Assembly (NCBI RefSeq): GCF_054482595.1
Contig: NZ_CM137008.1
Strand: one strand, 5' to 3'
Length of the DNA: 64,000 nt
Positions 28,858-53,325 of this stretch are shown here, piece after piece. Position numbers and translations under genes: made by a program. Under the pieces are notes generated by a model that was not told the origin of the DNA, searched no databases, and was given only the letters and a program-made list of their open reading frames with translations. Positions within the stretch are counted from its first letter, which is position 1, and every line of letters begins with the position of its first letter.

Positions 28858-28861
28858 TGAT

Positions 28862-28891
28862 TTTGCCTCGCCCACCGGGCGAGGCATTTTA
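28862..28891. terminator. bidirectional terminator between convergent hemL and fhuB
   Basis: GCCTCGCCC-ACC-GGGCGAGGC followed by ATTTTATT on plus strand and preceded by complementary A/T run. Confidence 0.65.
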
Positions 28892-43150: not shown

Positions 43151-43209
43151 GCTATGATTAGCCGCTATTTTTTTGTCCTGAATGATGTTTGACACTACCG
43201 AGGTGTACT

Positions 43210-44607
43210 ATTTTTACCCGAGTCGCTAATTTTTGCCGCAAGGTGCTAAGCCGCGAGGAAAGCGAGGCTGAACAGGCAGTCGCCCGTCCACAGGTGACGG
43301 TGATCCCGCGTGAGCAGCATGCTATTTCCCGCAAAGATATCAGTGAAAATGCCCTGAAGGTAATGTACAGGCTCAATAAAGCGGGATACGAAGCCTGGCT
43401 GGTTGGCGGCGGCGTGCGCGACCTGTTACTTGGCAAAAAGCCGAAAGACTTTGACGTAACCACTAACGCCACGCCTGAGCAGGTGCGCAAACTGTTCCGT
43501 AACTGCCGCCTGGTGGGTCGCCGTTTCCGTCTGGCTCATGTGATGTTTGGCCCGGAGATTATCGAAGTTGCGACCTTCCGTGGACACCACGAAGGTAACG
43601 TCAGCGACCGCACGACCTCCCAACGCGGGCAAAACGGCATGTTGCTGCGCGACAACATTTTCGGCTCCATCGAAGAAGACGCCCAGCGCCGCGATTTCAC
43701 TATCAACAGCCTGTATTACAGCGTAGCGGATTTTACCGTCCGTGATTACGTTGGCGGTATGAAGGATCTGAAGGACGGTGTTATCCGTCTGATTGGTAAC
43801 CCGGAAACGCGCTACCGTGAAGATCCGGTACGTATGCTGCGCGCGGTACGTTTTGCCGCCAAATTGGGTATGCGCATCAGCCCGGAAACCGCAGAACCGA
43901 TCCCTCGCCTCGCTACCCTGCTGAACGATATCCCACCGGCACGCCTGTTTGAAGAATCGCTTAAACTGCTACAAGCGGGCTACGGTTACGAAACCTATAA
44001 GCTGCTGTGTGAATATCATCTGTTCCAGCCACTGTTCCCGACCATTACCCGCTACTTCACGGAAAATGGCGACAGCCCGATGGAGCGGATCATTGAGCAG
44101 GTACTGAAGAACACCGATACGCGTATTCATAACGATATGCGCGTTAACCCGGCGTTTTTGTTTGCCGCCATGTTCTGGTACCCACTGCTGGAGACGGCAC
44201 AGAAGATCGCCCAGGAAAGCGGCCTGACCTATCACGACGCTTTCGCGCTGGCGATGAACGACGTGCTGGACGAAGCCTGCCGTTCACTGGCAATCCCGAA
44301 ACGCCTGACGACATTAACCCGCGATATCTGGCAGTTGCAGTTGCGTATGTCCCGACGTCAGGGTAAACGCGCATGGAAACTGCTGGAGCATCCTAAGTTC
44401 CGTGCGGCTTATGACCTGTTGGCCTTGCGAGCTGAAGTTGAGCGTAACGCTGAACTGCAGCGTCTGGTGAAATGGTGGGGTGAGTTCCAGGTTTCCGCGC
44501 CACCAGACCAAAAAGGGATGCTCAACGAGCTGGATGAAGAACCATCACCGCGTCGTCGTACTCGTCGTCCACGCAAACGCGCACCACGTCGTGAGGGTAC
44601 CGCATGA
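43210..44607 (+). CDS. pcnB: poly(A) polymerase I PcnB
   Basis: ORF contains [24 protein letters not shown]...; no in-frame ATG near the conserved N-terminus; start placed at ATT 43210 following published AUU initiation for E. coli pcnB; track ORF starts at TTG 43189. Confidence 0.85.
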
Positions 44608-45083
44608 CAGTGGCGTATATTGCCATAGGCAGCAATCTGGCCTCTCCGCTGGAGCAGGTCAATGCTGCCCTGAAAGCATTAGGCGATATCCCTGAAAGCC
44701 ACATTCTTACCGTTTCTTCGTTTTACCGCACCCCACCGCTGGGGCCGCAAGATCAACCCGATTACTTAAACGCAGCCGTGGCGCTGGAAACCTCTCTTGC
44801 ACCTGAAGTGCTACTCAATCACACACAGCGTATTGAATTGCAGCAAGGTCGCGTCCGTAAAGCTGAACGCTGGGGACCGCGCACGCTGGATCTCGACATC
44901 ATGCTGTTTGGTAATGAAGTGATAAATACTGAACGACTGACCGTACCGCACTACGATATGAAAAATCGTGGATTTATGCTGTGGCCGCTGTTTGAAATCG
45001 CGCCGGAGTTGGTGTTTCCTGATGGGGAAACATTACGTGAAATACTCACTTCACTAGCAGTACCACAACCTGCCATCTGGTAA
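44604..45083 (+). CDS. folK: 2-amino-4-hydroxy-6-hydroxymethyldihydropteridine pyrophosphokinase
   Basis: 159-aa [34 protein letters not shown]...; start overlaps pcnB stop by 4 nt. Confidence 0.95.
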
Positions 45084-45424
45084 TAGCTGTATTATTTTAT
45101 TTTCTTGACGAGAGGAATACAAAATGATACGGCTATTTCATCCACCAAGAAAAAATTATTTTCTTATCTTACTCCTCACATCCCCCTTACACATTAAATA
45201 TACTTAATTTACATTTTAGTTTTTTTTAATTCATTCATGAAATAGCACTTCATGCAAATAGATTAGGCATTTTTTGTTTAAACGACCTAAAATAACAACA
45301 ATTCAATACGCCACATAAATATATTCACACCCGTGATAATTCACCCCTATTACATCCTCCAAAAACTTTGAGTAATATCCGCTCGCAATATTAATTTCAT
45401 ATAATTTTTGTAAGGATGCATGTA
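45084..45424 (+). promoter_or_regulatory. AT-rich leader/promoter region of the yad fimbrial operon
   Basis: 341-bp non-coding stretch that is visibly very AT-rich, with multiple A/T tracts, upstream of yadN. Confidence 0.4.
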
Positions 45425-46021
45425 ATGAAAAAAGCACTTCTCGCAGCCGCTCTGGTTATGGCTTCTGGTTCCGCCCTGGCTGTAGATGGTGGTCATATCG
45501 ACTTTAACGGTATGGTACAGTCCGGTACCTGTAAAGTGGGTGTGGTAGATACTGGTATGCACAGCGTTACCACTGATGGCGTGGTTACCCTGGATACTGC
45601 GAATGTTACTGATACTTTTGCTGAAGTTAGCGCAACTGCTGTCGGTTTACTGCCGAAAGAGTTCATGATTTCTGTTGAGTGTGATCCAGGTGCTCCGAAG
45701 AATGCTGAGTTGACTATGGGTTCTGCAAGCTACGCGAACACCAGCGGTACCCTGAATAACAATATGAACATCACTGTTAACGGTATTGCACCGGCTCAGA
45801 ACGTAAACATTGCAGTTCATAACATGAAAAACAAAGCTGGCGCTGCTGAAATTAAGCAGGTCCATATGAACAACTCTTCTGAAGTTCAGGAACTGACATT
45901 AGACGCAGAAGGTAAAGGCCAGTACGTATTTAACGCATCTTACGTTAAAGCACCGAACAGCCCGGCTGTAACTGCTGGTCATGTAACCACTAACGCGCTG
46001 TACACCGTTGCTTATAAGTAA
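45425..46021 (+). CDS. yadN: fimbrial major subunit (chaperone-usher pilin)
   Basis: Signal peptide MKKALLAAALVMASGSALA; conserved Cys pair; C-terminal pilin-like strand (..LYTVAYK); AGGA 8 nt upstream of ATG 45425; alternative ATG at 45416. Confidence 0.8.
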   Translation: MKKALLAAALVMASGSALAVDGGHIDFNGMVQSGTCKVGVVDTGMHSVTTDGVVTLDTANVTDTFAEVSATAVGLLPKEFMISVECDPGAPKNAELTMGSASYANTSGTLNNNMNITVNGIAPAQNVNIAVHNMKNKAGAAEIKQVHMNNSSEVQELTLDAEGKGQYVFNASYVKAPNSPAVTAGHVTTNALYTVAYK

Positions 46022-46107
46022 TTGATGGTGTGTTGAGCATAAGGTTTGCCAGCAGGCAGACCTTATTTTCTCTAATTTAATCTTTTTACAGACAGCAAGG
46101 AGTGCTT

Positions 46108-46833
46108 ATGTTTCCCTTGGTTAAAAAAACGGTTAGTGCATTATTTGTAAGTACTCTGTTAGCCAGTGCGCCAGCATTTGCTGACATTATTATTTCCGGA
46201 ACACGTATCATTTATAACGCTGATAAAAAAGATGTTAACGTTCGCCTGGAAAATAAAGGGAATCGTCCCTTACTGATTCAAAACTGGTTGGATACGGGCG
46301 ATGACAATGCCGATCCCAGCCAGATCAAAGTGCCGTTTACCGCGACCCCGCCCGTTTCACGCGTAGAGCCAAAACGCGGTCAAACCGTAAAAGTGATGTA
46401 CACCGGTGCAACAGCCCTGCCGAAAGACCGTGAAAGCGTCTACTGGTTTAACGTGCTGGAAGTGCCGCCTAAGCCGAAAGATGCTGAGGCTGACAAAAAC
46501 TTGTTACAGCTGGCTTTCCGTACGCGCATCAAACTCTTTTATCGCCCGAGCGGTTTACAGGGAGAACCGGCTGAAGCACCGGCGAAAATCACCTGGAAAT
46601 TAAACAACGCTCAGTTACAGGCAAATAACCCAACGCCATATTACGTGTCCTTTAATGAGGTCAAGCTGGAAAGCGGCGGCAAAACCTACAACGTCAATTC
46701 CAGCATGGTCGCGCCGTTCAGCCAGGCAAGCTTTGGCGTAACCGGTCTGCCAGGAAGCGTTTCATCCGGAAAAGTGGTCTTTAAAGCGATCAACGACTTT
46801 GGCGGCAACATTGATGGTTCCGCAACATTCTAA
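46108..46833 (+). CDS. yadV: periplasmic fimbrial chaperone (PapD-like)
   Basis: ORF MFPLVKKTVSALFVSTLLASAPAFADIIISGTRIIY... typical of PapD-family chaperones; AAGGAG 5 nt upstream of ATG 46108. Confidence 0.85.
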   Translation: MFPLVKKTVSALFVSTLLASAPAFADIIISGTRIIYNADKKDVNVRLENKGNRPLLIQNWLDTGDDNADPSQIKVPFTATPPVSRVEPKRGQTVKVMYTGATALPKDRESVYWFNVLEVPPKPKDAEADKNLLQLAFRTRIKLFYRPSGLQGEPAEAPAKITWKLNNAQLQANNPTPYYVSFNEVKLESGGKTYNVNSSMVAPFSQASFGVTGLPGSVSSGKVVFKAINDFGGNIDGSATF

Positions 46834-46874
46834 AAAATAAACGGATTCTTTTTAACATCGCCAGGAATGCAACC

Positions 46875-49475
46875 TTGTACCAGTTTACTCATCAAAAAAG
46901 CCGTATCCCGAAAAAAACGCTACTTGCGGCCTGTTGCGCCCTTTTTTACAGCGGCAACAGTTCTGCGGCAGACACGGTGGAATATGACAGTTCCTTCTTA
47001 ATGGGAACTGGCGCATCAACGATTGATGTTAAACGTTATGCTCAAGGCAACCCGACACCGCCGGGTCTCTATAATGTCCGCGTGTTTGTAAACGGTCAGG
47101 CGACGTCCAGCTTAGAAATTCCGTTTGTGGATATTGGCGAAAACAGCGCAGCGGCCTGTATTACCCACAAAAACCTGGCACAACTTCACATTAAGCAACC
47201 TGAACAGCCTGTCACTTTACTCGCCAGAGAAGGTGAGGAAGAGGATTGTCTGGATTTGGCAAAGTCATACGAAAAGGCGGATGTGCGCTTTGACGGTAGT
47301 GACCAGTTTCTCGATCTGACGATCCCTCAGGCCTATGTTTTGAAAAGCTATGGCGGCTACGTTGACCCTTCTTTATGGGAATCGGGAATTAACGCTGCCA
47401 CACTGGCATATACCCTGAACGCGTATCACACAAGTTCAGATAACGACAATAGTGACAGCGTCTATGGCGCATTTAACTCGGGTATCAATTTAGGAGCCTG
47501 GCACTTCCGTGCGCGCGGTAACTATAACTGGACAACAGATAACGGCAGCGATTTCGATTTCCAGGATCGTTACTTACAGCGTGACATTCCGGCAATCCGT
47601 TCACAGATAATTATGGGTGACGCCTACACCACCGGTGAAACGTTTGACTCTGTCAACGTCCGTGGTGTTCGCCTGTACAGCGATAGCCGTATGCTACCTT
47701 CGGCGCTGGCCAGTTACGCTCCGACCATCCGCGGTGTAGCAAACTCCAACGCCAAAGTCACGGTGACGCAAAGCGGTTATAAAATCTATGAAACCACCGT
47801 ACCACCCGGTGAATTTGTTATAGACGACATTAGCCCTTCCGGCTTTGGTAGCGAACTGGTCGTAACCATTGAAGAAGCGGATGGTTCCAAACGCACCTTT
47901 ACGCAACCCTTCTCGTCGGTTGTGCAAATGCAACGTCCTGGTGTAGGTCGTTGGGATTTCAGTGCCGGTAAAGTCATTGATGATAGCCTGCGTTCCGAAC
48001 CCAATATGGGGCAAGCCTCTTATTACTATGGTCTGAATAACCTCTTCACGGGTTATACCGGCATTCAGTTCACCGATAACAACTATCTTGCCGGGCTGTT
48101 AGGTGTGGGTATCAACACCAGCATCGGCGCCTTTGCGGTAGACGTTACCCATTCCCGTGCTGAAATTCCGGATGATAAAACCTACCAGGGGCAAAGTTAT
48201 CGCGTGACCTGGAACAAACTTTTCCAGGATACCGGGACATCATTTAACCTCGCGGCGTACCGCTATTCCACCCAGGATTACCTGGGCCTGCATGATGCGT
48301 TAGTCCTCATTGACGACGCCAAACATTTGTCTGCCGATGAAGACAAAAACACCATGCAGACGTACTCACGTATGAAAAACCAGTTTACCGTCAGCATCAA
48401 CCAGCCGCTGAAAACGACTTACGAAGATTACGGTTCACTGTTTATTTCCGGTAGCTGGACGGATTACTGGGCGGCGAACAATAGCCGCACTGAATATAAT
48501 GTTGGTTACAGTAAAAGCGTTTCGTGGGGCAGTTTCAGCGTCAACCTGCAACGTAGCTGGAATGAAGACGGCGAGAAAGATGACGCGATGTACGTCAGCG
48601 TTAGCGTACCTATTGAGAATATTTTAGGTGGCAAGCGCAAATCTTCTGGTTTCCGCAATTTAAATACTCAGCTCAATACCGATTTTGATGGTTCACATCA
48701 GTTGAATGTTAACAGTTCCGGTAACACTGAAAACAATCTGGTGAACTACAGTGTCAACGCAGGTTATAGCCTCGATAAAAACGCCGGCGATTTAGCCTCT
48801 GTTGGTGGTTATCTCAACTATGAATCAGGGTTAGGCGGTATTTCCGCTTCGGCCTCGGCCACTTCTGATAATAGCCAGCAGTACTCCATCTCCACCGATG
48901 GCGGCTTTGTATTACACAGTGGTGGTTTAACGTTCACTAACAACAGTTTCAGCAGTAACGACACGCTGGTGTTAATCAACGCCCCAGGTGCTAAAGGCGC
49001 ACGAATCAATAACAGTAATAACGAAATCGATCGCTGGGGATATGCCGTGACGTCTTCTGTCAGCCCCTACCGTGAAAACCGGGTAGGTCTGAACATTGAA
49101 ACACTGGAAAACGATGTTGAACTGAAAAGTACCAGCGCCACCACCGTACCACGCAGCGGCTCCGTTGTTTTGACCCGTTTCGAAACTGACGAGGGGCGTT
49201 CTGCCGTGCTGAATATTACTGCCGCCAATGGCAAATCTATTCCGTTTGCTGCGGAGGTTTACCAGGGTGAGGTGATGATCGGCAGCATGGGCCAGGGTGG
49301 TCAGGCATTTGTGCGCGGTATTAACGACAGCGGGGAATTAACAGTGCGTTGGTATGAAAACAACCAAACCATTGACTGTAAGTTGCACTACCAGTTCCCG
49401 GCCCAGCCACAAACGCTGGGAAGTACCAACACCTTATTACTTAACAATCTTACCTGTCAGGTAGCAAATCACTAA
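46875..49475 (+). CDS. htrE: fimbrial outer membrane usher
   Basis: 866-aa ORF between chaperone and minor subunits; apparent TTG start at 46875 (no in-frame ATG upstream). Confidence 0.85.
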   Translation: MYQFTHQKSRIPKKTLLAACCALFYSGNSSAADTVEYDSSFLMGTGASTIDVKRYAQGNPTPPGLYNVRVFVNGQATSSLEIPFVDIGENSAAACITHKNLAQLHIKQPEQPVTLLAREGEEEDCLDLAKSYEKADVRFDGSDQFLDLTIPQAYVLKSYGGYVDPSLWESGINAATLAYTLNAYHTSSDNDNSDSVYGAFNSGINLGAWHFRARGNYNWTTDNGSDFDFQDRYLQRDIPAIRSQIIMGDAYTTGETFDSVNVRGVRLYSDSRMLPSALASYAPTIRGVANSNAKVTVTQSGYKIYETTVPPGEFVIDDISPSGFGSELVVTIEEADGSKRTFTQPFSSVVQMQRPGVGRWDFSAGKVIDDSLRSEPNMGQASYYYGLNNLFTGYTGIQFTDNNYLAGLLGVGINTSIGAFAVDVTHSRAEIPDDKTYQGQSYRVTWNKLFQDTGTSFNLAAYRYSTQDYLGLHDALVLIDDAKHLSADEDKNTMQTYSRMKNQFTVSINQPLKTTYEDYGSLFISGSWTDYWAANNSRTEYNVGYSKSVSWGSFSVNLQRSWNEDGEKDDAMYVSVSVPIENILGGKRKSSGFRNLNTQLNTDFDGSHQLNVNSSGNTENNLVNYSVNAGYSLDKNAGDLASVGGYLNYESGLGGISASASATSDNSQQYSISTDGGFVLHSGGLTFTNNSFSSNDTLVLINAPGAKGARINNSNNEIDRWGYAVTSSVSPYRENRVGLNIETLENDVELKSTSATTVPRSGSVVLTRFETDEGRSAVLNITAANGKSIPFAAEVYQGEVMIGSMGQGGQAFVRGINDSGELTVRWYENNQTIDCKLHYQFPAQPQTLGSTNTLLLNNLTCQVANH

Positions 49476-49476
49476 T

Positions 49477-50037
49477 ATGGAAAATTCTATGAAAAGGATA
49501 CTACTAACATCCGCGTTAATAGGTCTGGGTTTACCGGCGGTTGGCTCTGCAACAGATCTTAATGTCGATTTTACGGCCACCGTATTAGCCACCACCTGTA
49601 CGATAACTATCGTACAAGATGGTGGTCCAGTAGTGACGGGTAGCAACGGTGAATATAGCCTGACAATTCCCGATGTTGGCCTGGATAAAGTTGTCACTGG
49701 AGATGTTGCAGCTCAAGCCAACTTTAAATTAGTGGCTTCCGATTGCAGCAATGGTTATTCAAAGATTTTTACCACACTTACAGGAACAACGGTTTCCGGT
49801 AAGTTAATTGTTAATGAAACAACCTCTGGCGCTACGGGTGTGGGTATGGGGATTAAGCGTAGAGATACCGCAGACTCGGCTTTCTTTACGCCAAATAATA
49901 CTGACAAATTTGAATGGAGTACCGATGAGAAAGCTAACGGTGTGCCTCTGACCGTAGCACTGCGCGAAACAACGGCAGGAGCAGGACGCACTGGTGCGTT
50001 TCAGGCAAAAGCCACCTTTAACTTCACCTACGAATAA
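49477..50037 (+). CDS. yadM: fimbrial minor subunit
   Basis: 186-aa ORF with signal peptide and C-terminal ..ATFNFTYE; alternative start at MKRILL (49492). Confidence 0.8.
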   Translation: MENSMKRILLTSALIGLGLPAVGSATDLNVDFTATVLATTCTITIVQDGGPVVTGSNGEYSLTIPDVGLDKVVTGDVAAQANFKLVASDCSNGYSKIFTTLTGTTVSGKLIVNETTSGATGVGMGIKRRDTADSAFFTPNNTDKFEWSTDEKANGVPLTVALRETTAGAGRTGAFQAKATFNFTYE

Positions 50038-50051
50038 CAGGGACAGCCACC

Positions 50052-50663
50052 ATGAAATTAAAAGTCATAGCTACACTGATTGCTACTGTTGCCGTGGGTG
50101 CCAGCGTTAGCAACAATCTCACTTATGCGAGTACGACATCCGCCTCTTTAACCGTAAACAGTAACCTGACTATGGGTACCTGTAGTGCGAAGGTAGTGGA
50201 TACCAGTGGTGCCGTGATCGACACCGTTGTCTTGGGCAATGTTTATATTTCTGAACTGGCAGCCAAAAGCAAGGTGCAACCATTTAAAATCCGCTTCAGC
50301 GATTGTGCCGGGCTTCCAGGAAAGAGTGCTCAACTCGTCTTAGCGCCCAAAAACAACGGTTGCGCAGGAGGCATGTCTGACACTGCCGCCTTTTCAAATA
50401 AACTCAACACCACCACCGATGGTGGTTCAAGCAGAGCAGCAGTCGAAGTATGGACGACTACAAGCCCCGAAGGAACTGGCAGTGAGCAATTCAATTGTTA
50501 TCAGCGAAACGTCATCAATGTCGATCTTTCTAATGCCAGCACAACACAGCCTTATGATTTCGATTTAAGCGCGCGAATGATTATCGCTGGCGGGTGGACA
50601 GTCAATGACGTATTACCGGGTAGATTCCTCTCTCCTACGACTTTCACAATCACTTATCAGTAA
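50052..50663 (+). CDS. yadL: fimbrial minor subunit
   Basis: 203-aa ORF with signal peptide MKLKVIATLIATVAVGASV and C-terminal ..TFTITYQ. Confidence 0.8.
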   Translation: MKLKVIATLIATVAVGASVSNNLTYASTTSASLTVNSNLTMGTCSAKVVDTSGAVIDTVVLGNVYISELAAKSKVQPFKIRFSDCAGLPGKSAQLVLAPKNNGCAGGMSDTAAFSNKLNTTTDGGSSRAAVEVWTTTSPEGTGSEQFNCYQRNVINVDLSNASTTQPYDFDLSARMIIAGGWTVNDVLPGRFLSPTTFTITYQ

Positions 50664-50683
50664 TAGCGGATAAGGATATTAGA

Positions 50684-51274
50684 ATGCTATGCAGGCATCA
50701 TAAATTTGTACGTTTTTTGGGGCTGGCAACAGCCCTCATTACGCCTTTTGCCTATGCTGGCCAGGATGTGGATCTCACGGCGCAGATTGTGGCCAGCACC
50801 TGTCAGGTGGAAGTCAGTAATAATGGCGTTGTCGATCTCGGCACAGTGACGCTGGACTATTTTGCTGACAATGTGACCCCAACGACGGATTACGCGGGTG
50901 GCAAAACGTTTAATGTTAATGTGGTCTCTTGCGATAACATTCAAACGACACAGTCGCAAATGAAATTAGATTTTCAGCCGCAGGCGGGAGCGCTTGCACA
51001 GGTGAATAATCAAATTTTTAGTAATGAATACGAACAGCAGGCTACCGGGGCGAAAAACGTCGGCATTGTGATATTTTCGGCCCAACCGAATCAGCAGACA
51101 TTTAACGTGCGAGGAACAGATGGTTCCTCAGCAGCAATTTATTCGGTCGCGCCTGGCAATGCTGTTCCCTCAACCTGGACCTTTTATTCCCGTATGCAGC
51201 GGGTGAATAATGCCCTTCCTCCTGAATCGGGAATGGTGAGAAGCCAGGTTATTGTTAACGTATCTTACGAATAA
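50684..51274 (+). CDS. yadK: fimbrial minor subunit
   Basis: 196-aa ORF with signal peptide and C-terminal ..VNVSYE. Confidence 0.8.
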   Translation: MLCRHHKFVRFLGLATALITPFAYAGQDVDLTAQIVASTCQVEVSNNGVVDLGTVTLDYFADNVTPTTDYAGGKTFNVNVVSCDNIQTTQSQMKLDFQPQAGALAQVNNQIFSNEYEQQATGAKNVGIVIFSAQPNQQTFNVRGTDGSSAAIYSVAPGNAVPSTWTFYSRMQRVNNALPPESGMVRSQVIVNVSYE

Positions 51275-51285
51275 TAAGGATAATT

Positions 51286-52398
51286 ATGCAAAGGAAAGGC
51301 AATAAACTGTTGATTCAGTTATGCAGTGCGATACTGCTATTTTTTACCACATCCTGGTATGCATTGGCGAATGAATGTTATATAGAGAGAAATGCTGAAG
51401 GGCCTTATGATATGGTGATAAACCGAAAGCCTTTCAGTATACAGTCAGCGATGGTCACAGTCCCGGAAGAAATAGGCTTCGCGACCTGGGATTCTCATAT
51501 TGATCTTCGGGGCGATAAGATTGGTTGTAAATCCTTAGGTAGTAACACAAGCTCAGTGCATTTTCTTAATACTGCTGATGCCAGTCTCTTATCAACCTAT
51601 ACTACCAGCCATGGCGATGCTTTATTGAAAACAACCGTTCCCGGTATTGTTTATTCAGTAGAATTAGTATGTACAAGTTGTGGAGCCGCGGAGGAGCTTG
51701 ATTTGTATCTTCCTGCACAAAGTGGTGCAGATAATCATACAGATAACGCCAGCTCAAAGTGGGCCTATGAGTATAGTGACGAGAGCTGGTATTTACGATT
51801 TCGTTTTTTCTGGACCCCGGAATTTAAACCTCAAAATGGGGTTTCAGAAGGAACTGCGATACCAGGTAAAATAGCTTCCTGGTATATAGGCAATAATGAT
51901 CAACCATGGATAAATTTTTTCGTTGATACAAGCTCCGTTCATTTTTACGTTGACGAACCGACCTGTGCAACAGTTGCCCTCGCACAAGATCAGGGCAACG
52001 TCAGTGGCAACCAGGTAACGCTTGGGAACAGTTATGTTTCAGAAGTGAAAAATGGGCTTACGCGGGAAATCCCTTTTTCTATCCGTGCTGAATACTGTTA
52101 TGCCAGTAAAATAACGGTTAAATTGAAAGCGGCAAATAAACCCAGCGACGCCACACTAGTAGGTAAAACGACTGGCTCTGCTTCAGGCGTGGCTGTAAAA
52201 GTAAATTCAACTTATGACAATAGCAAAGTATTGTTAAAAGCAGATGGTAGCAACACGGTTGACTATAACTTCGCCGTCTGGTCAAACAACCTGCTGCTTT
52301 TACCTTTTACGGCGCAGCTGGTACCGGATGGCAGTGGTGCTGCTGTCGGTGTTGGAACCTTCTCTGGTAACGCGACCTTCTCCTTTACCTACGAATAA
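51286..52398 (+). CDS. yadC: fimbrial tip adhesin (two-domain, lectin domain plus pilin domain)
   Basis: 370-aa ORF, last gene of the cluster, signal peptide, C-terminal pilin-like ..ATFSFTYE. Confidence 0.75.
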   Translation: MQRKGNKLLIQLCSAILLFFTTSWYALANECYIERNAEGPYDMVINRKPFSIQSAMVTVPEEIGFATWDSHIDLRGDKIGCKSLGSNTSSVHFLNTADASLLSTYTTSHGDALLKTTVPGIVYSVELVCTSCGAAEELDLYLPAQSGADNHTDNASSKWAYEYSDESWYLRFRFFWTPEFKPQNGVSEGTAIPGKIASWYIGNNDQPWINFFVDTSSVHFYVDEPTCATVALAQDQGNVSGNQVTLGNSYVSEVKNGLTREIPFSIRAEYCYASKITVKLKAANKPSDATLVGKTTGSASGVAVKVNSTYDNSKVLLKADGSNTVDYNFAVWSNNLLLLPFTAQLVPDGSGAAVGVGTFSGNATFSFTYE

Positions 52399-52421
52399 GT
52401 AAAACGTCATTCCTTCCTCAT

Positions 52422-52455
52422 CGCACCAGAGTTCTGCTCTGGTGCGAACATTTTC
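52422..52455 (+). terminator. terminator hairpin downstream of yadC (end of fimbrial operon)
   Basis: Inverted repeat GCACCAGAG-ttctg-CTCTGGTGC after the yadC stop. Confidence 0.5.
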
Positions 52456-52533
52456 CCCACACTAAAAACCATTGCCCCCCTGATTTCGACTGTTAGAATG
52501 CGATCAATCTGACTTTAGCCATCAGGATACGTT

Positions 52534-53325
52534 ATGAAACCGACCACTATTGCTTCATTGCAGAAATGTAAGCAGGAAAAAAAACGCTTCGCCACCATCA
52601 CCGCCTACGACTACAGCTTCGCCAAATTGTTTGCTGACGAAGGGCTAAACGTGATGCTGGTGGGCGATTCGCTGGGCATGACCGTGCAGGGCCACGTCTC
52701 CACTCTGCCGGTAACCGTTGCCGATATTGCCTACCACACTGCCGCTGTACGTCGCGGCGCACCAAACTGCCTGCTGCTGGCTGACCTGCCGTTTATGGCA
52801 TATGCCACGCCGGAACAAGCCTTTGAAAATGCCGCCACAGTAATGCGTGCCGGAGCCAATATGGTCAAAATCGAAGGTGGCGCATGGCTGGTGGAAACCG
52901 TGCAGATGCTGACTGAACGCGCGGTTCCGGTATGTGGTCATTTAGGTTTAACGCCGCAGTCAGTGAACATTTTCGGCGGCTACAAAGTACAAGGGCGTGG
53001 CGAGGCAGGCGATCAACTGCTCAGCGATGCATTAGCATTAGAAGCGGCAGGCGCACAACTTCTGGTGCTGGAATGCGTACCGGTTGAACTGGCAAAACGT
53101 ATTACCGAAGCGCTGGCGATCCCGGTTATCGGTATTGGCGCAGGCAACGTTACCGATGGGCAGATCCTCGTGATGCACGATGCGTTCGGCATTACCGGCG
53201 GCCATATCCCTAAATTTGCCAAAAATTTCCTCGCTGAAACGGGCGACATCCGCGCGGCTGTGCGGCAGTATATGGCTGAAGTGGAGTCCGGCGTTTATCC
53301 GGGCGAAGAACACAGTTTCCATTAA
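52534..53325 (+). CDS. panB: 3-methyl-2-oxobutanoate hydroxymethyltransferase
   Basis: 263-aa [40 protein letters not shown]... Confidence 0.95.

Follow-up and report, generated by a model that had tools for sequence, protein, structure and literature searches.

An intact chaperone–usher fimbrial operon, apparently of a Sta-like lineage, at the folK–panB site of an Escherichia coli chromosome

Introduction

The Yad system of EHEC O157:H7 Sakai/EDL933 (ECs0139–ECs0145) has the same chromosomal site and the same seven genes as the operon described here. When induced, the Sakai allele (ECs0139–0145) produces thin, flexible gamma-4 fimbriae, which have been imaged (PMC7098969), and the EHEC yad locus is transcribed from its native promoter and has been deleted in EHEC (PMC11287998). 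The K-12/ExPEC Yad operon likewise shares the chromosomal site, the gene order, the gamma-4 chaperone–usher (CU) architecture, a two-domain adhesin and an AT-rich upstream region; its YadC binds D-xylose, and H-NS represses yad in both K-12 and ExPEC (PMC13245861). The Sta-type operon of Salmonella (staABCDEFG) also lies at the folK–panB site; in S. enterica serovar Kotte its seven genes come in the order seen here, and the locus reads folK, seven genes, panB, panC, rpn and panD. Yad was equated with Sta by Wurpel 2013 (PMC3559732). Type 1 (Fim) pili and P (Pap) pili, the structural models for CU assembly, share the chaperone and usher domain sets with this operon, and the sequence identity between their structures and its proteins is 10–24%.

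Organization of the operon and its products

The window analysed here is a 64 000-nt stretch of contig NZ_CM137008.1 (assembly GCF_054482595.1). Between the end of folK (45083) and the start of panB (52534), the position by which Wurpel 2013 recognizes the Yad locus, it holds seven intact, co-oriented genes on the + strand (45425–52398; Table 1). E. coli chromosomes annotated in RefSeq, e.g. XH990 and O157:H16 Santai, carry the operon DNA with 100% identity, and the gene coordinates are those given by RefSeq for the 100%-identical record NZ_CP019359. The locus is an intact classical (gamma-4 type) CU fimbrial operon at the conserved folK–panB site of the E. coli chromosome, with chaperone, usher, pilin subunits and tip adhesin all present; as such it is an already known, textbook system, annotated in RefSeq. 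An earlier note, made from the letters of this DNA, had proposed a seven-gene fimbrial operon with these gene roles, and the open reading frames, Pfam domains, position and gene order bear it out; frameshifts, which the note had named as the mark of decay, are absent from the seven genes. Its description of an accessory locus is loose: some operon is present at the site in almost all E. coli, and it is the occupying lineage that varies. Among the multi-gene segments of the window, the operon alone lacks an alignment to K-12 at ≥90% identity.

Table 1. Features of the folK–panB interval and its right flank (window coordinates)
Feature	Position	Strand	Description
folK–yadN intergenic region	45084..45424	+	341 bp; likely promoter/silencing region
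yadN	45425..46021	+	major pilin, 198 aa
stem-loop 3' of yadN	46039..46066	+	candidate partial terminator
yadV	46108..46833	+	periplasmic PapD-like chaperone, 241 aa
htrE-like usher	46875..49475	+	outer membrane, 866 aa, TTG start
yadM	49489..50037	+	minor pilin, 182 aa (186 aa from alternative ATG at 49477)
yadL	50052..50663	+	putative minor pilin, 203 aa; body probably a replaced cassette
yadK	50684..51274	+	minor pilin, 196 aa
yadC	51286..52398	+	predicted two-domain tip adhesin, 370 aa
stem-loop 3' of yadC	52421..52447	+	candidate operon terminator
panB	52534..53325	+	housekeeping flank, apparently travelling with this operon lineage

YadV has both domains of a PapD-like chaperone (Pfam PapD_N 2.3e-45, PapD_C 1e-19) and passes NCBIfam NF007398 with 420 bits (cutoff 285); its ATG at 46108 follows an AGGAG Shine-Dalgarno sequence 5 nt upstream. 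The usher carries PapC_N (3.6e-37), Usher (5.5e-157) and PapC_C (1e-16) and passes NF007337 with 1563 bits (cutoff 830). The two proteins thereby fall within the HtrE/YadV equivalog families that characterize the Yad usher clade, although the Salmonella usher passes NF007337 as well, so this model spans both of the operon lineages discussed below. The TTG start proposed earlier for the usher is confirmed: an AGGAA Shine-Dalgarno sequence precedes it by 7 nt, and one has to go as far as M43, beyond the signal peptide, for the next in-frame ATG. The 1-nt spacing reported between htrE and yadM applies only to an ATG at 49477, and the start chosen by RefSeq, ATG at 49489, leaves 13 nt; a strong Shine-Dalgarno sequence is absent at both yadM starts.

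By direct reading of the sequence, all five subunits have a signal peptide, a conserved Cys pair and a C-terminal strand with a penultimate Tyr (..FNFTYE, ..FTITYQ, ..VNVSYE, ..FSFTYE and ..YTVAYK, as quoted before), and the four pilins have an N-terminal donor strand. The Pfam Fimbrial family matches four of the five: YadN (E=1.2e-8; Cys36/Cys86), YadM (8e-16), YadK (1.5e-9) and YadC. The yadN start lies 7 nt downstream of an AAGGA Shine-Dalgarno sequence, and YadK passes NF011794 (274 bits, cutoff 132). YadL gave no Pfam match above cutoff and no significant pilin or fimbrial match in a PDB sequence search. Its AlphaFold (AF2) model (pLDDT 70.7) is matched by Foldseek to the pilins FimA, FimF/G, PapE and PapA, and this predicted fold supports its assignment as a pilin.

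YadC appears to consist of a lectin domain (about aa 29–220) and a pilin domain (about aa 221–370), the Pfam Fimbrial match being confined to aa 225–369. Read directly, its mature N-terminus has no donor strand and begins with the lectin domain. The AF2 model (pLDDT 88.4) has FimH, LpfD, CupB6 and CfaE as Foldseek top matches with probability 1.00, and FocH and PapG are also among the top. The model thus argues for a two-domain tip adhesin lacking a donor strand, in agreement with the earlier reading of the 370-aa protein.

Two operon lineages at one site

Table 2 compares the seven proteins with those of Sakai, Salmonella and K-12. The window operon resembles the Sakai system in YadN, YadV, HtrE, YadK and YadM but differs from it in YadL and YadC.

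Table 2. Amino acid identity of the window proteins to related operons, and K-12 protein lengths
Protein	Sakai (%)	Salmonella (%)	K-12 (%)	K-12 length (aa)
YadN	100	64	43	194
YadV	99	74	63	246
HtrE	98.6	71	61	865
YadM	92		52	189
YadL	66			201
YadK	96	60	41	198
YadC	84	51	27	412

All seven proteins are nearer to Salmonella than to K-12, and the usher is 90% identical to that of E. albertii. Low identity to K-12 combined with higher identity to Sakai, E. albertii and Salmonella suggests that two old operon lineages share the folK–panB site; the arrangement of folK, seven genes and panB is the same in K-12, Sakai, E. albertii, E. fergusonii and Salmonella. On this comparative evidence, we assign the window operon to a Sta-like lineage, a minority in E. 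coli, which is also the occupant of folK–panB in O157:H7, E. albertii, E. fergusonii, a non-coli Escherichia sp. and Salmonella. YadN, YadM and YadL match the StaA, StaD and StaE models best among the NCBIfam models, but at 46–74% amino acid identity to Salmonella Sta the window proteins score below the equivalog cutoffs (StaA 159 against 230, StaD 161 against 228, StaE 279 against 414 bits). The serovar Kotte proteins are themselves below these three cutoffs, and ‘Sta-like’ is therefore a statement of lineage and not an equivalog call. YadL reaches E=1.7e-83 with the StaE/YadL models, yet it stays under every cutoff, whereas Sakai YadL passes the StaE model with 467 bits.

A usher search, which shows how common this lineage is among 5426 complete E. 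coli genomes, gave full-length matches in 576, and in 420 of these the identity was ≥90%; about 10% of complete E. coli genomes carry a Sta-like operon. In this search, K-12-type htrE matched the window usher at only ~66%. The class structure is visible with distant blastn of the usher and not with megablast of the whole operon, which found no K-12-type loci.

Could the window operon nevertheless be an ordinary strain allele of the K-12 yad operon, differing by point and length variation only? The shared site and gene order, the similar gene sizes, and the passing of NCBIfam equivalog models covering HtrE and YadV by the usher and chaperone would agree with this, as would Wurpel 2013, which puts all operons at the site into one type, Yad (PMC3559732). 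We nonetheless consider it very unlikely. The seven proteins are only 27–63% identical to K-12 Yad, and the operon DNA 66–70% where it can be aligned, inside a window that is otherwise 98–99.5% identical to K-12; besides, each of the seven is closer to Salmonella. The K-12-type models are failed by wide margins, by YadL with 146 bits (cutoff 206) and 140 bits (cutoff 392) and by YadC with 27 bits (NF007269, cutoff 473). The K-12/ExPEC adhesin has 412–429 aa, and the other lengths differ as well, as the earlier note had said. Its conclusion that the source is not K-12 therefore stands; its appeal to strain-to-strain variability is right about a real difference from K-12 but too modest, an usher at 61% and an adhesin at 27% pointing to a separate operon lineage beyond ordinary allelic or length variability. 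Finally, a criterion of ≥80% HtrE identity and coverage, applied in a 2026 study, makes phylogroup E Yad-negative (PMC13245861), and the window usher falls short of it against the three comparators used (K-12, 61%; Nissle, 60%; Q65, 59%).

Nor do two other readings of the locus displace a Sta-like, intact operon. CU operons at this site are silent in K-12 under laboratory conditions (PMC3559732), and in the related Z226-5 allele yadL is frameshifted and yadK interrupted by an internal stop; one might thus see a decaying, non-functional cryptic remnant. This is highly improbable, as the seven reading frames are intact with their signal peptides and conserved Cys pairs, dN/dS (a check suggested in the earlier note) is 0–0.25 for every gene, indicative of purifying selection, the 7.45-kb segment is conserved at 100% identity in 13 complete genomes, the sources being humans, poultry and pigs, and the near-identical Sakai machinery does build fimbriae. 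We give still less credence to a genomic island acquired horizontally via a mobile element. The base composition (GC 47% in the operon, 53% in the flanks and 29% upstream of yadN) and, 2 kb downstream, the gene of an Rpn-family nuclease, rpnC, and a duplicated rpnC 3' fragment would speak for it. Against it, the site is occupied by an operon in E. albertii, E. fergusonii and Salmonella too; the operon is sharply bounded on the left, where folK ends, and the divergence of the right flank is graded, which is typical of homologous recombination. A search for mobile-element signatures (integrase, IS elements, tRNA genes, att-like or flanking direct repeats, Rfam families) found none, and all 679 places detected by megablast were chromosomal, with 0 on a plasmid.

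The assignment of the window operon to a Sta-like lineage bears on the literature, because the names yadN to yadC cover two lineages at 27–63% protein identity. With one set of gene names for both, surveys of presence and absence come to contradict each other: Yad was intact in 94% of strains according to Wurpel 2013 (PMC3559732) and found in 0% of phylogroup E with the 80% HtrE threshold (PMC13245861). Data on ligand, regulation and prevalence from K-12/ExPEC Yad do not transfer automatically to the window operon; in particular, since it forms a separate lineage, D-xylose binding should not be assumed for its YadC, nor H-NS repression for the operon. At the level of sequence, the lectin domain of this YadC shows no relationship to that of the K-12/ExPEC protein (27% identity to K-12 over the whole protein).

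Cassette exchange and the panB flank

The differences from Sakai are concentrated in two segments. In yadL, nt 50200–50600 are 64–66% identical to Sakai and 94–95% to the non-coli Escherichia sp. E1V33; in yadC, the lectin half (nt 51400–52000) is 65–78% identical to Sakai, and the pilin half 95–96%. Synonymous divergence from Sakai is saturated in both genes (dS=1.1 for yadL, 1.8 for yadC), with dN/dS of 0.12–0.22 (0.22 for yadL), and this saturation in the yadL body and the yadC lectin segment suggests cassette replacement. Recent positive selection was considered as a cause of the divergence of yadL and yadC and was rejected on the same values.

Compared with E1V33, dS is 0.05–0.12 from yadV to yadC and 0.22 in yadN, against 0.33–0.44 in gluQ and folK. 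The flanking panB is 97.2% identical to E1V33 at the nucleotide level and 89–91% to K-12, Sakai, Z226-5, Q65 and Nissle. Identity of the right flank to K-12 is 88–96% over panB and panC, 85% in the panC–rpnC spacer and 99.6% by ~55.5 kb. The operon and panB are thus nearer to E1V33 than the flanking housekeeping genes are, which argues for recombinational exchange. We infer that the operon is a mosaic with respect to Sakai and a recombinant within the Sta-like lineage. Its yadN corresponds to the O157 allele, and panB, the lectin part of yadC and the body of yadL correspond to alleles of E1V33. Homologous recombination would swap whole cassettes, such that exposed and receptor-binding parts change and polymerization interfaces remain constant.

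Taken jointly, an intact gamma-4 fimbrial operon of Sta-like and not K-12-type lineage, recombinant by cassette exchange within that lineage, is a reading in which we have high confidence. The locus would then represent a clean case of adhesin-operon cassette exchange with a hitch-hiking housekeeping gene, panB. A broader scenario, for and against which we see about equal chances, is a trans-species polymorphism at folK–panB. K-12-like and Sta-like operons, whose split would be at least as old as that between the Sta-like operon and Salmonella, would segregate in E. coli, E. fergusonii and cryptic Escherichia through cross-species recombination, with modular swaps of the yadL body and the yadC lectin domain, fixed interfaces and panB dragged along. 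If so, balancing or frequency-dependent selection on the fimbrial surface and receptor specificity would be implied, and surveys with K-12/ExPEC queries would wrongly record as Yad-negative ~10% of genomes, the whole of phylogroup E among them.

Assembly and regulatory elements

Fibre assembly at the surface, seen for the Sakai allele, may be expected of the window allele by analogy, although its YadL and YadC are only 66% and 84% identical to the Sakai proteins. From what is known of the family, Sec would export the five subunits, YadV would cap them by donor-strand complementation, and donor-strand exchange at the HtrE usher would then polymerize them to give a thin fibre. YadC, with its lectin domain and without a donor strand, would sit at the tip, YadK, YadL and YadM would serve as adaptors or minor subunits, and YadN would form the shaft.

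Transcription would start upstream of yadN, in the region of 29% GC. By analogy with the K-12/ExPEC operon, H-NS probably silences this region, its low GC content being the one observation on the window operon that favours this. The evidence for H-NS repression comes from the K-12/ExPEC lineage, the promoter region of which is unalignable with 45084–45424. This region is 100% identical to Escherichia sp. E1V33. Promoter-like hexamers occur upstream of yadN at 45175–45204 and 45264–45293; the number of promoter-like matches in the scanned region is not above that in shuffled sequence. A phase-variable switch was looked for and rejected: unlike Fim and Pap, the window operon has no recombinase gene, no long or convincing invertible repeat and no GATC upstream (0 sites) of the kind found in a GATC/Lrp-type switch.

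Hairpins follow the first and the last gene. The yadN stem-loop has a 12-bp stem, then TTTTCTCT, and the segment around it (46022–46085) folds at -21.4 kcal/mol (z=-4.5 against shuffles). By analogy with the hairpins of fimA and papA, we propose that the yadN 3' hairpin may act as a partial terminator and thereby fix the ratio of pilin to machinery, probably by reducing read-through to the machinery genes. The yadC stem-loop, also with a 12-bp stem, has a weak U-tract, and the segment that holds it (52399–52470) folds at -21.4 kcal/mol as well (z=-5.9 against shuffles). Downstream of it lies a promoter-like site of panB with an extended -10 element (52472–52499).

Organization of the yad locus

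Seven closely packed + strand open reading frames lie between folK and panB (see table). The earlier note had recognized in them a chaperone–usher fimbrial operon, and this was right in outline: the seven yad genes are real and are annotated in RefSeq. The 7.45-kb segment is found with 100% identity in 13 complete genomes, E. coli XH990 and 12 others including O157:H16 Santai, and the RefSeq annotation of XH990 gives the same seven genes. A TTG start had been proposed for htrE; a properly placed AGGAA and the position of the next in-frame ATG (M43), past the signal peptide, bear this out. The 1-nt spacing claimed between htrE and yadM holds for the first of the two candidate yadM starts, while RefSeq chooses the second. 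The dN/dS ratio, a check that had been suggested earlier, is ≤0.25 in all seven genes, which speaks for upkeep of the operon and against its decay.

Features of the yad locus and its surroundings, with amino acid identity (%) of the window proteins to K-12 and to Salmonella enterica serovar Kotte
Feature	Position	Strand	Start and SD check	K-12	Salmonella
pcnB	43210-44607		ATT 43210 (annotated); GAGGTG before		
folK	44604-45083				
yadN	45425-46021	+	ATG 45425; AAGGA upstream	43	64
Hairpin 3' of yadN	46039-46066				
yadV (chaperone)	46108-46833	+	ATG 46108; AGGAG upstream	63	74
htrE (usher)	46875-49475	+	TTG 46875; AGGAA upstream	61	71
yadM	49489-50037	+	ATG 49477 (1 nt after htrE stop) or ATG 49489 (RefSeq)	52	63
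yadL	50052-50663	+		42	46
Divergent block, yadL body	50200-50600				
yadK	50684-51274	+		41	60
yadC	51286-52398	+		27	51
Divergent block, yadC lectin domain	51400-52000				
Second hairpin	52421-52447				
panB	52534-53325				
Incomplete hypothetical pseudogene (RefSeq)	54284-54463				
Direct repeat, two copies	54292-54461; 54564-54709				
rpnC	54562-55434	-			

A Pfam search identified the Fimbrial domain in YadN, YadM, YadK and YadC; YadV has the two PapD domains, and HtrE the set of PapC_N, Usher and PapC_C. YadL gave nothing above cutoff in this search; it matches the StaE/YadL NCBIfam models (E=1.7e-83), and its AlphaFold model (pLDDT 70.7) resembles FimA, CS20 pilin, PapE and PapA. All five subunits carry a signal peptide, and the C-terminal motifs quoted for them earlier proved correct. 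In each of the four pilins a donor strand opens the N-terminus and a Cys comes after it, whereas mature YadC begins straight at its lectin domain. The description of YadC as a two-domain tip adhesin stands, since the best Foldseek matches of its predicted model (pLDDT 88.4) are FimH, LpfD, CupB6, CfaE, FocH and PapG.

A Sta-like lineage of the yad locus

Taken in reverse orientation, the window is collinear with K-12; outside the yad locus the two are 98–99.5% identical, and the flanking proteins are 98–99% (GluQ, PanB, PanC) or 92.5% (FolK) identical. Within the operon, DNA alignable with K-12 is confined to portions of yadV and htrE (66–70% identity). The earlier note had reported subunit and adhesin lengths differing from the K-12 alleles and suggested a source other than K-12. 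Protein alignment upheld the latter, and the difference goes beyond length, pointing to a separate lineage (YadC 27%, usher 61%). S. enterica serovar Kotte carries a seven-gene operon at the same chromosomal site, and all seven window proteins are more similar to its products than to those of K-12. The usher, chaperone and YadK pass NCBIfam equivalog models; the best models for YadN, YadM and YadL are StaA, StaD and StaE, all three below cutoff, and YadC scores 27 bits on the K-12-type YadC model (cutoff 473). Because the operon is nearer to Salmonella than to K-12, and the NCBIfam scores concur, we assign it on sequence grounds to a Sta-like lineage of the yad locus. Protein identities, NCBIfam scores and the class structure described below rule out a length variant of K-12 yad.

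Alleles compared across the site form two deep classes. Class I comprises K-12, Nissle and E. coli Q65 (ushers 74–87% identical among themselves), and class II the window, E. coli O157:H7 Sakai, the non-coli strain Escherichia sp. E1V33, E. albertii, E. coli Z226-5 and E. fergusonii (79–99%); between the classes, ushers are ~60% and adhesins 26–31% identical. An usher search over 5426 complete E. coli genomes found a full-length match to the window usher in 576, 420 of them at ≥90% identity and mainly O157:H7, O55:H7 and O145, and a class I htrE (~66% identical to the window usher) in ~4660. Beyond E. coli, class II occurs in E. albertii, E. fergusonii, Escherichia spp. E1V33 and E2661, and Salmonella, and class I in Escherichia spp. 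E10V10 and E4742 and in E. fergusonii.

The Z226-5 locus (8687-9893) holds a third allele, of class II and nearest to that of E. fergusonii (usher 94% aa), in which yadL is frameshifted and yadK interrupted by an internal stop. Decay is thus under way in some carriers of the lineage, whereas the window allele is intact. The Q65 locus (3582-10107) is a class I variant with only six genes, since it has two minor pilins and not three, and its adhesin is 416 aa long; the site thus varies in gene number as well as in sequence.

Wurpel (2013) placed all operons found here in a single core-associated type, Yad, which was equated with Sta of Salmonella and was intact in 94% of the strains surveyed (PMC3559732). 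A 2026 study using an 80% threshold to EC958 HtrE found Yad in 0% of phylogroup E and 5% of phylogroup D (PMC13245861). The class structure explains this discrepancy: those genomes do carry class II operons, which fall under the threshold. The same problem may lie behind the presence/absence associations reported for yadLMN in STEC (PMC12547504).

Mosaic structure and probable exchange between species

The operon is mostly 94–100% identical to that of Sakai, with lower stretches in yadM (86–92%) and two sharp-edged divergent blocks, the yadL body (64–66%) and the yadC lectin domain (65–78%). Recent positive selection could be invoked for these blocks; against it speaks the saturated dS (1.1 in yadL, 1.8 in yadC) with dN/dS of 0.22 and 0.12, and we regard both blocks as imported old alleles. 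The YadL donor and C-terminal strands and the YadC pilin domain are conserved, and the parts swapped appear to be the exposed or receptor-binding ones only.

Compared with E1V33, the housekeeping flanks are ~92% identical (dS 0.33 in gluQ, 0.44 in folK), the region upstream of the operon 100%, and yadV through yadC 96–98% (dS 0.05–0.12), with yadN as the exception (92%, dS 0.22). At the nucleotide level panB is 97% identical to E1V33 versus 89–91% to five other E. coli strains; the PanB protein is conserved at 97–98%. Divergence from K-12 begins sharply at the folK side and on the right passes through panB and panC (88–96%) and the panC-rpnC spacer (85%), with 99.6% identity by ~55.5 kb. The operon is accompanied by neither an IS element nor an integrase, a tRNA or flanking repeats, and an Rfam search returned no family. 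The simplest reading of these patterns is exchange by homologous recombination, in either direction, between E. coli and a non-coli Escherichia; panB seems to have been carried along as a hitch-hiker of this operon lineage.

The operon was already annotated and its closest allele studied experimentally. New from the present comparison are the assignment to a lineage that is Sta-like and O157-like rather than K-12-like, the mosaic of cassettes in yadL and the yadC lectin domain, and evidence of inter-species exchange, panB included.

Proposed assembly and regulation

By established chaperone–usher biology, Sec would export the subunits, YadV would hold them stable through donor-strand complementation, and donor-strand exchange at HtrE would polymerise them, YadC entering first to form the tip, followed by YadK, YadL and YadM, with YadN as the shaft. 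The strong hairpin 3' of yadN has a U-rich tail (−21.4 kcal/mol, z=−4.5 for the stretch containing it) and probably lets less transcription through to the machinery genes. The second hairpin (−21.4 kcal/mol, z=−5.9 for its stretch), with a panB promoter-like site directly beyond it, is probably the operon end. In K-12 and ExPEC, experiments have shown that H-NS silences class I yad (PMC13245861). The 341-bp upstream region of the window operon cannot be aligned with its class I counterpart, so here such silencing, with which the 29% GC content of this region is consistent, is inferred. A search for an invertible element or a Dam-site switch found none. Experimental support comes from the nearest relative: ECs0139-0145 of Sakai, when induced, give thin, flexible gamma-4 fimbriae (PMC7098969), and in EHEC the yad promoter itself drives transcription of the locus (PMC11287998).

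Observations in the flanks

The panC-rpnC spacer is the most divergent flank segment (78–88% identity to other strains). It contains a direct repeat (80–85%) of the rpnC 3' end, which looks like a recombination scar beside this gene for an Rpn-family recombination-promoting nuclease. The annotated ATT start of pcnB, in place of which a mechanical ORF list has an upstream TTG at 43189, agrees with the non-canonical AUU initiation codon known for poly(A) polymerase I. The K-12 phosphodiesterase gene yaeI (K-12 184257-185069) has no counterpart in the window (~18085-18214), where ~129 bp between dapD and yaeH replace ~843 bp of K-12. At three intergenic indels (10662-10666, 12557-12568 and 28858-28891), K-12 stretches of 146, 134 and 156 bp are shortened or absent; these are possibly REP-type elements.
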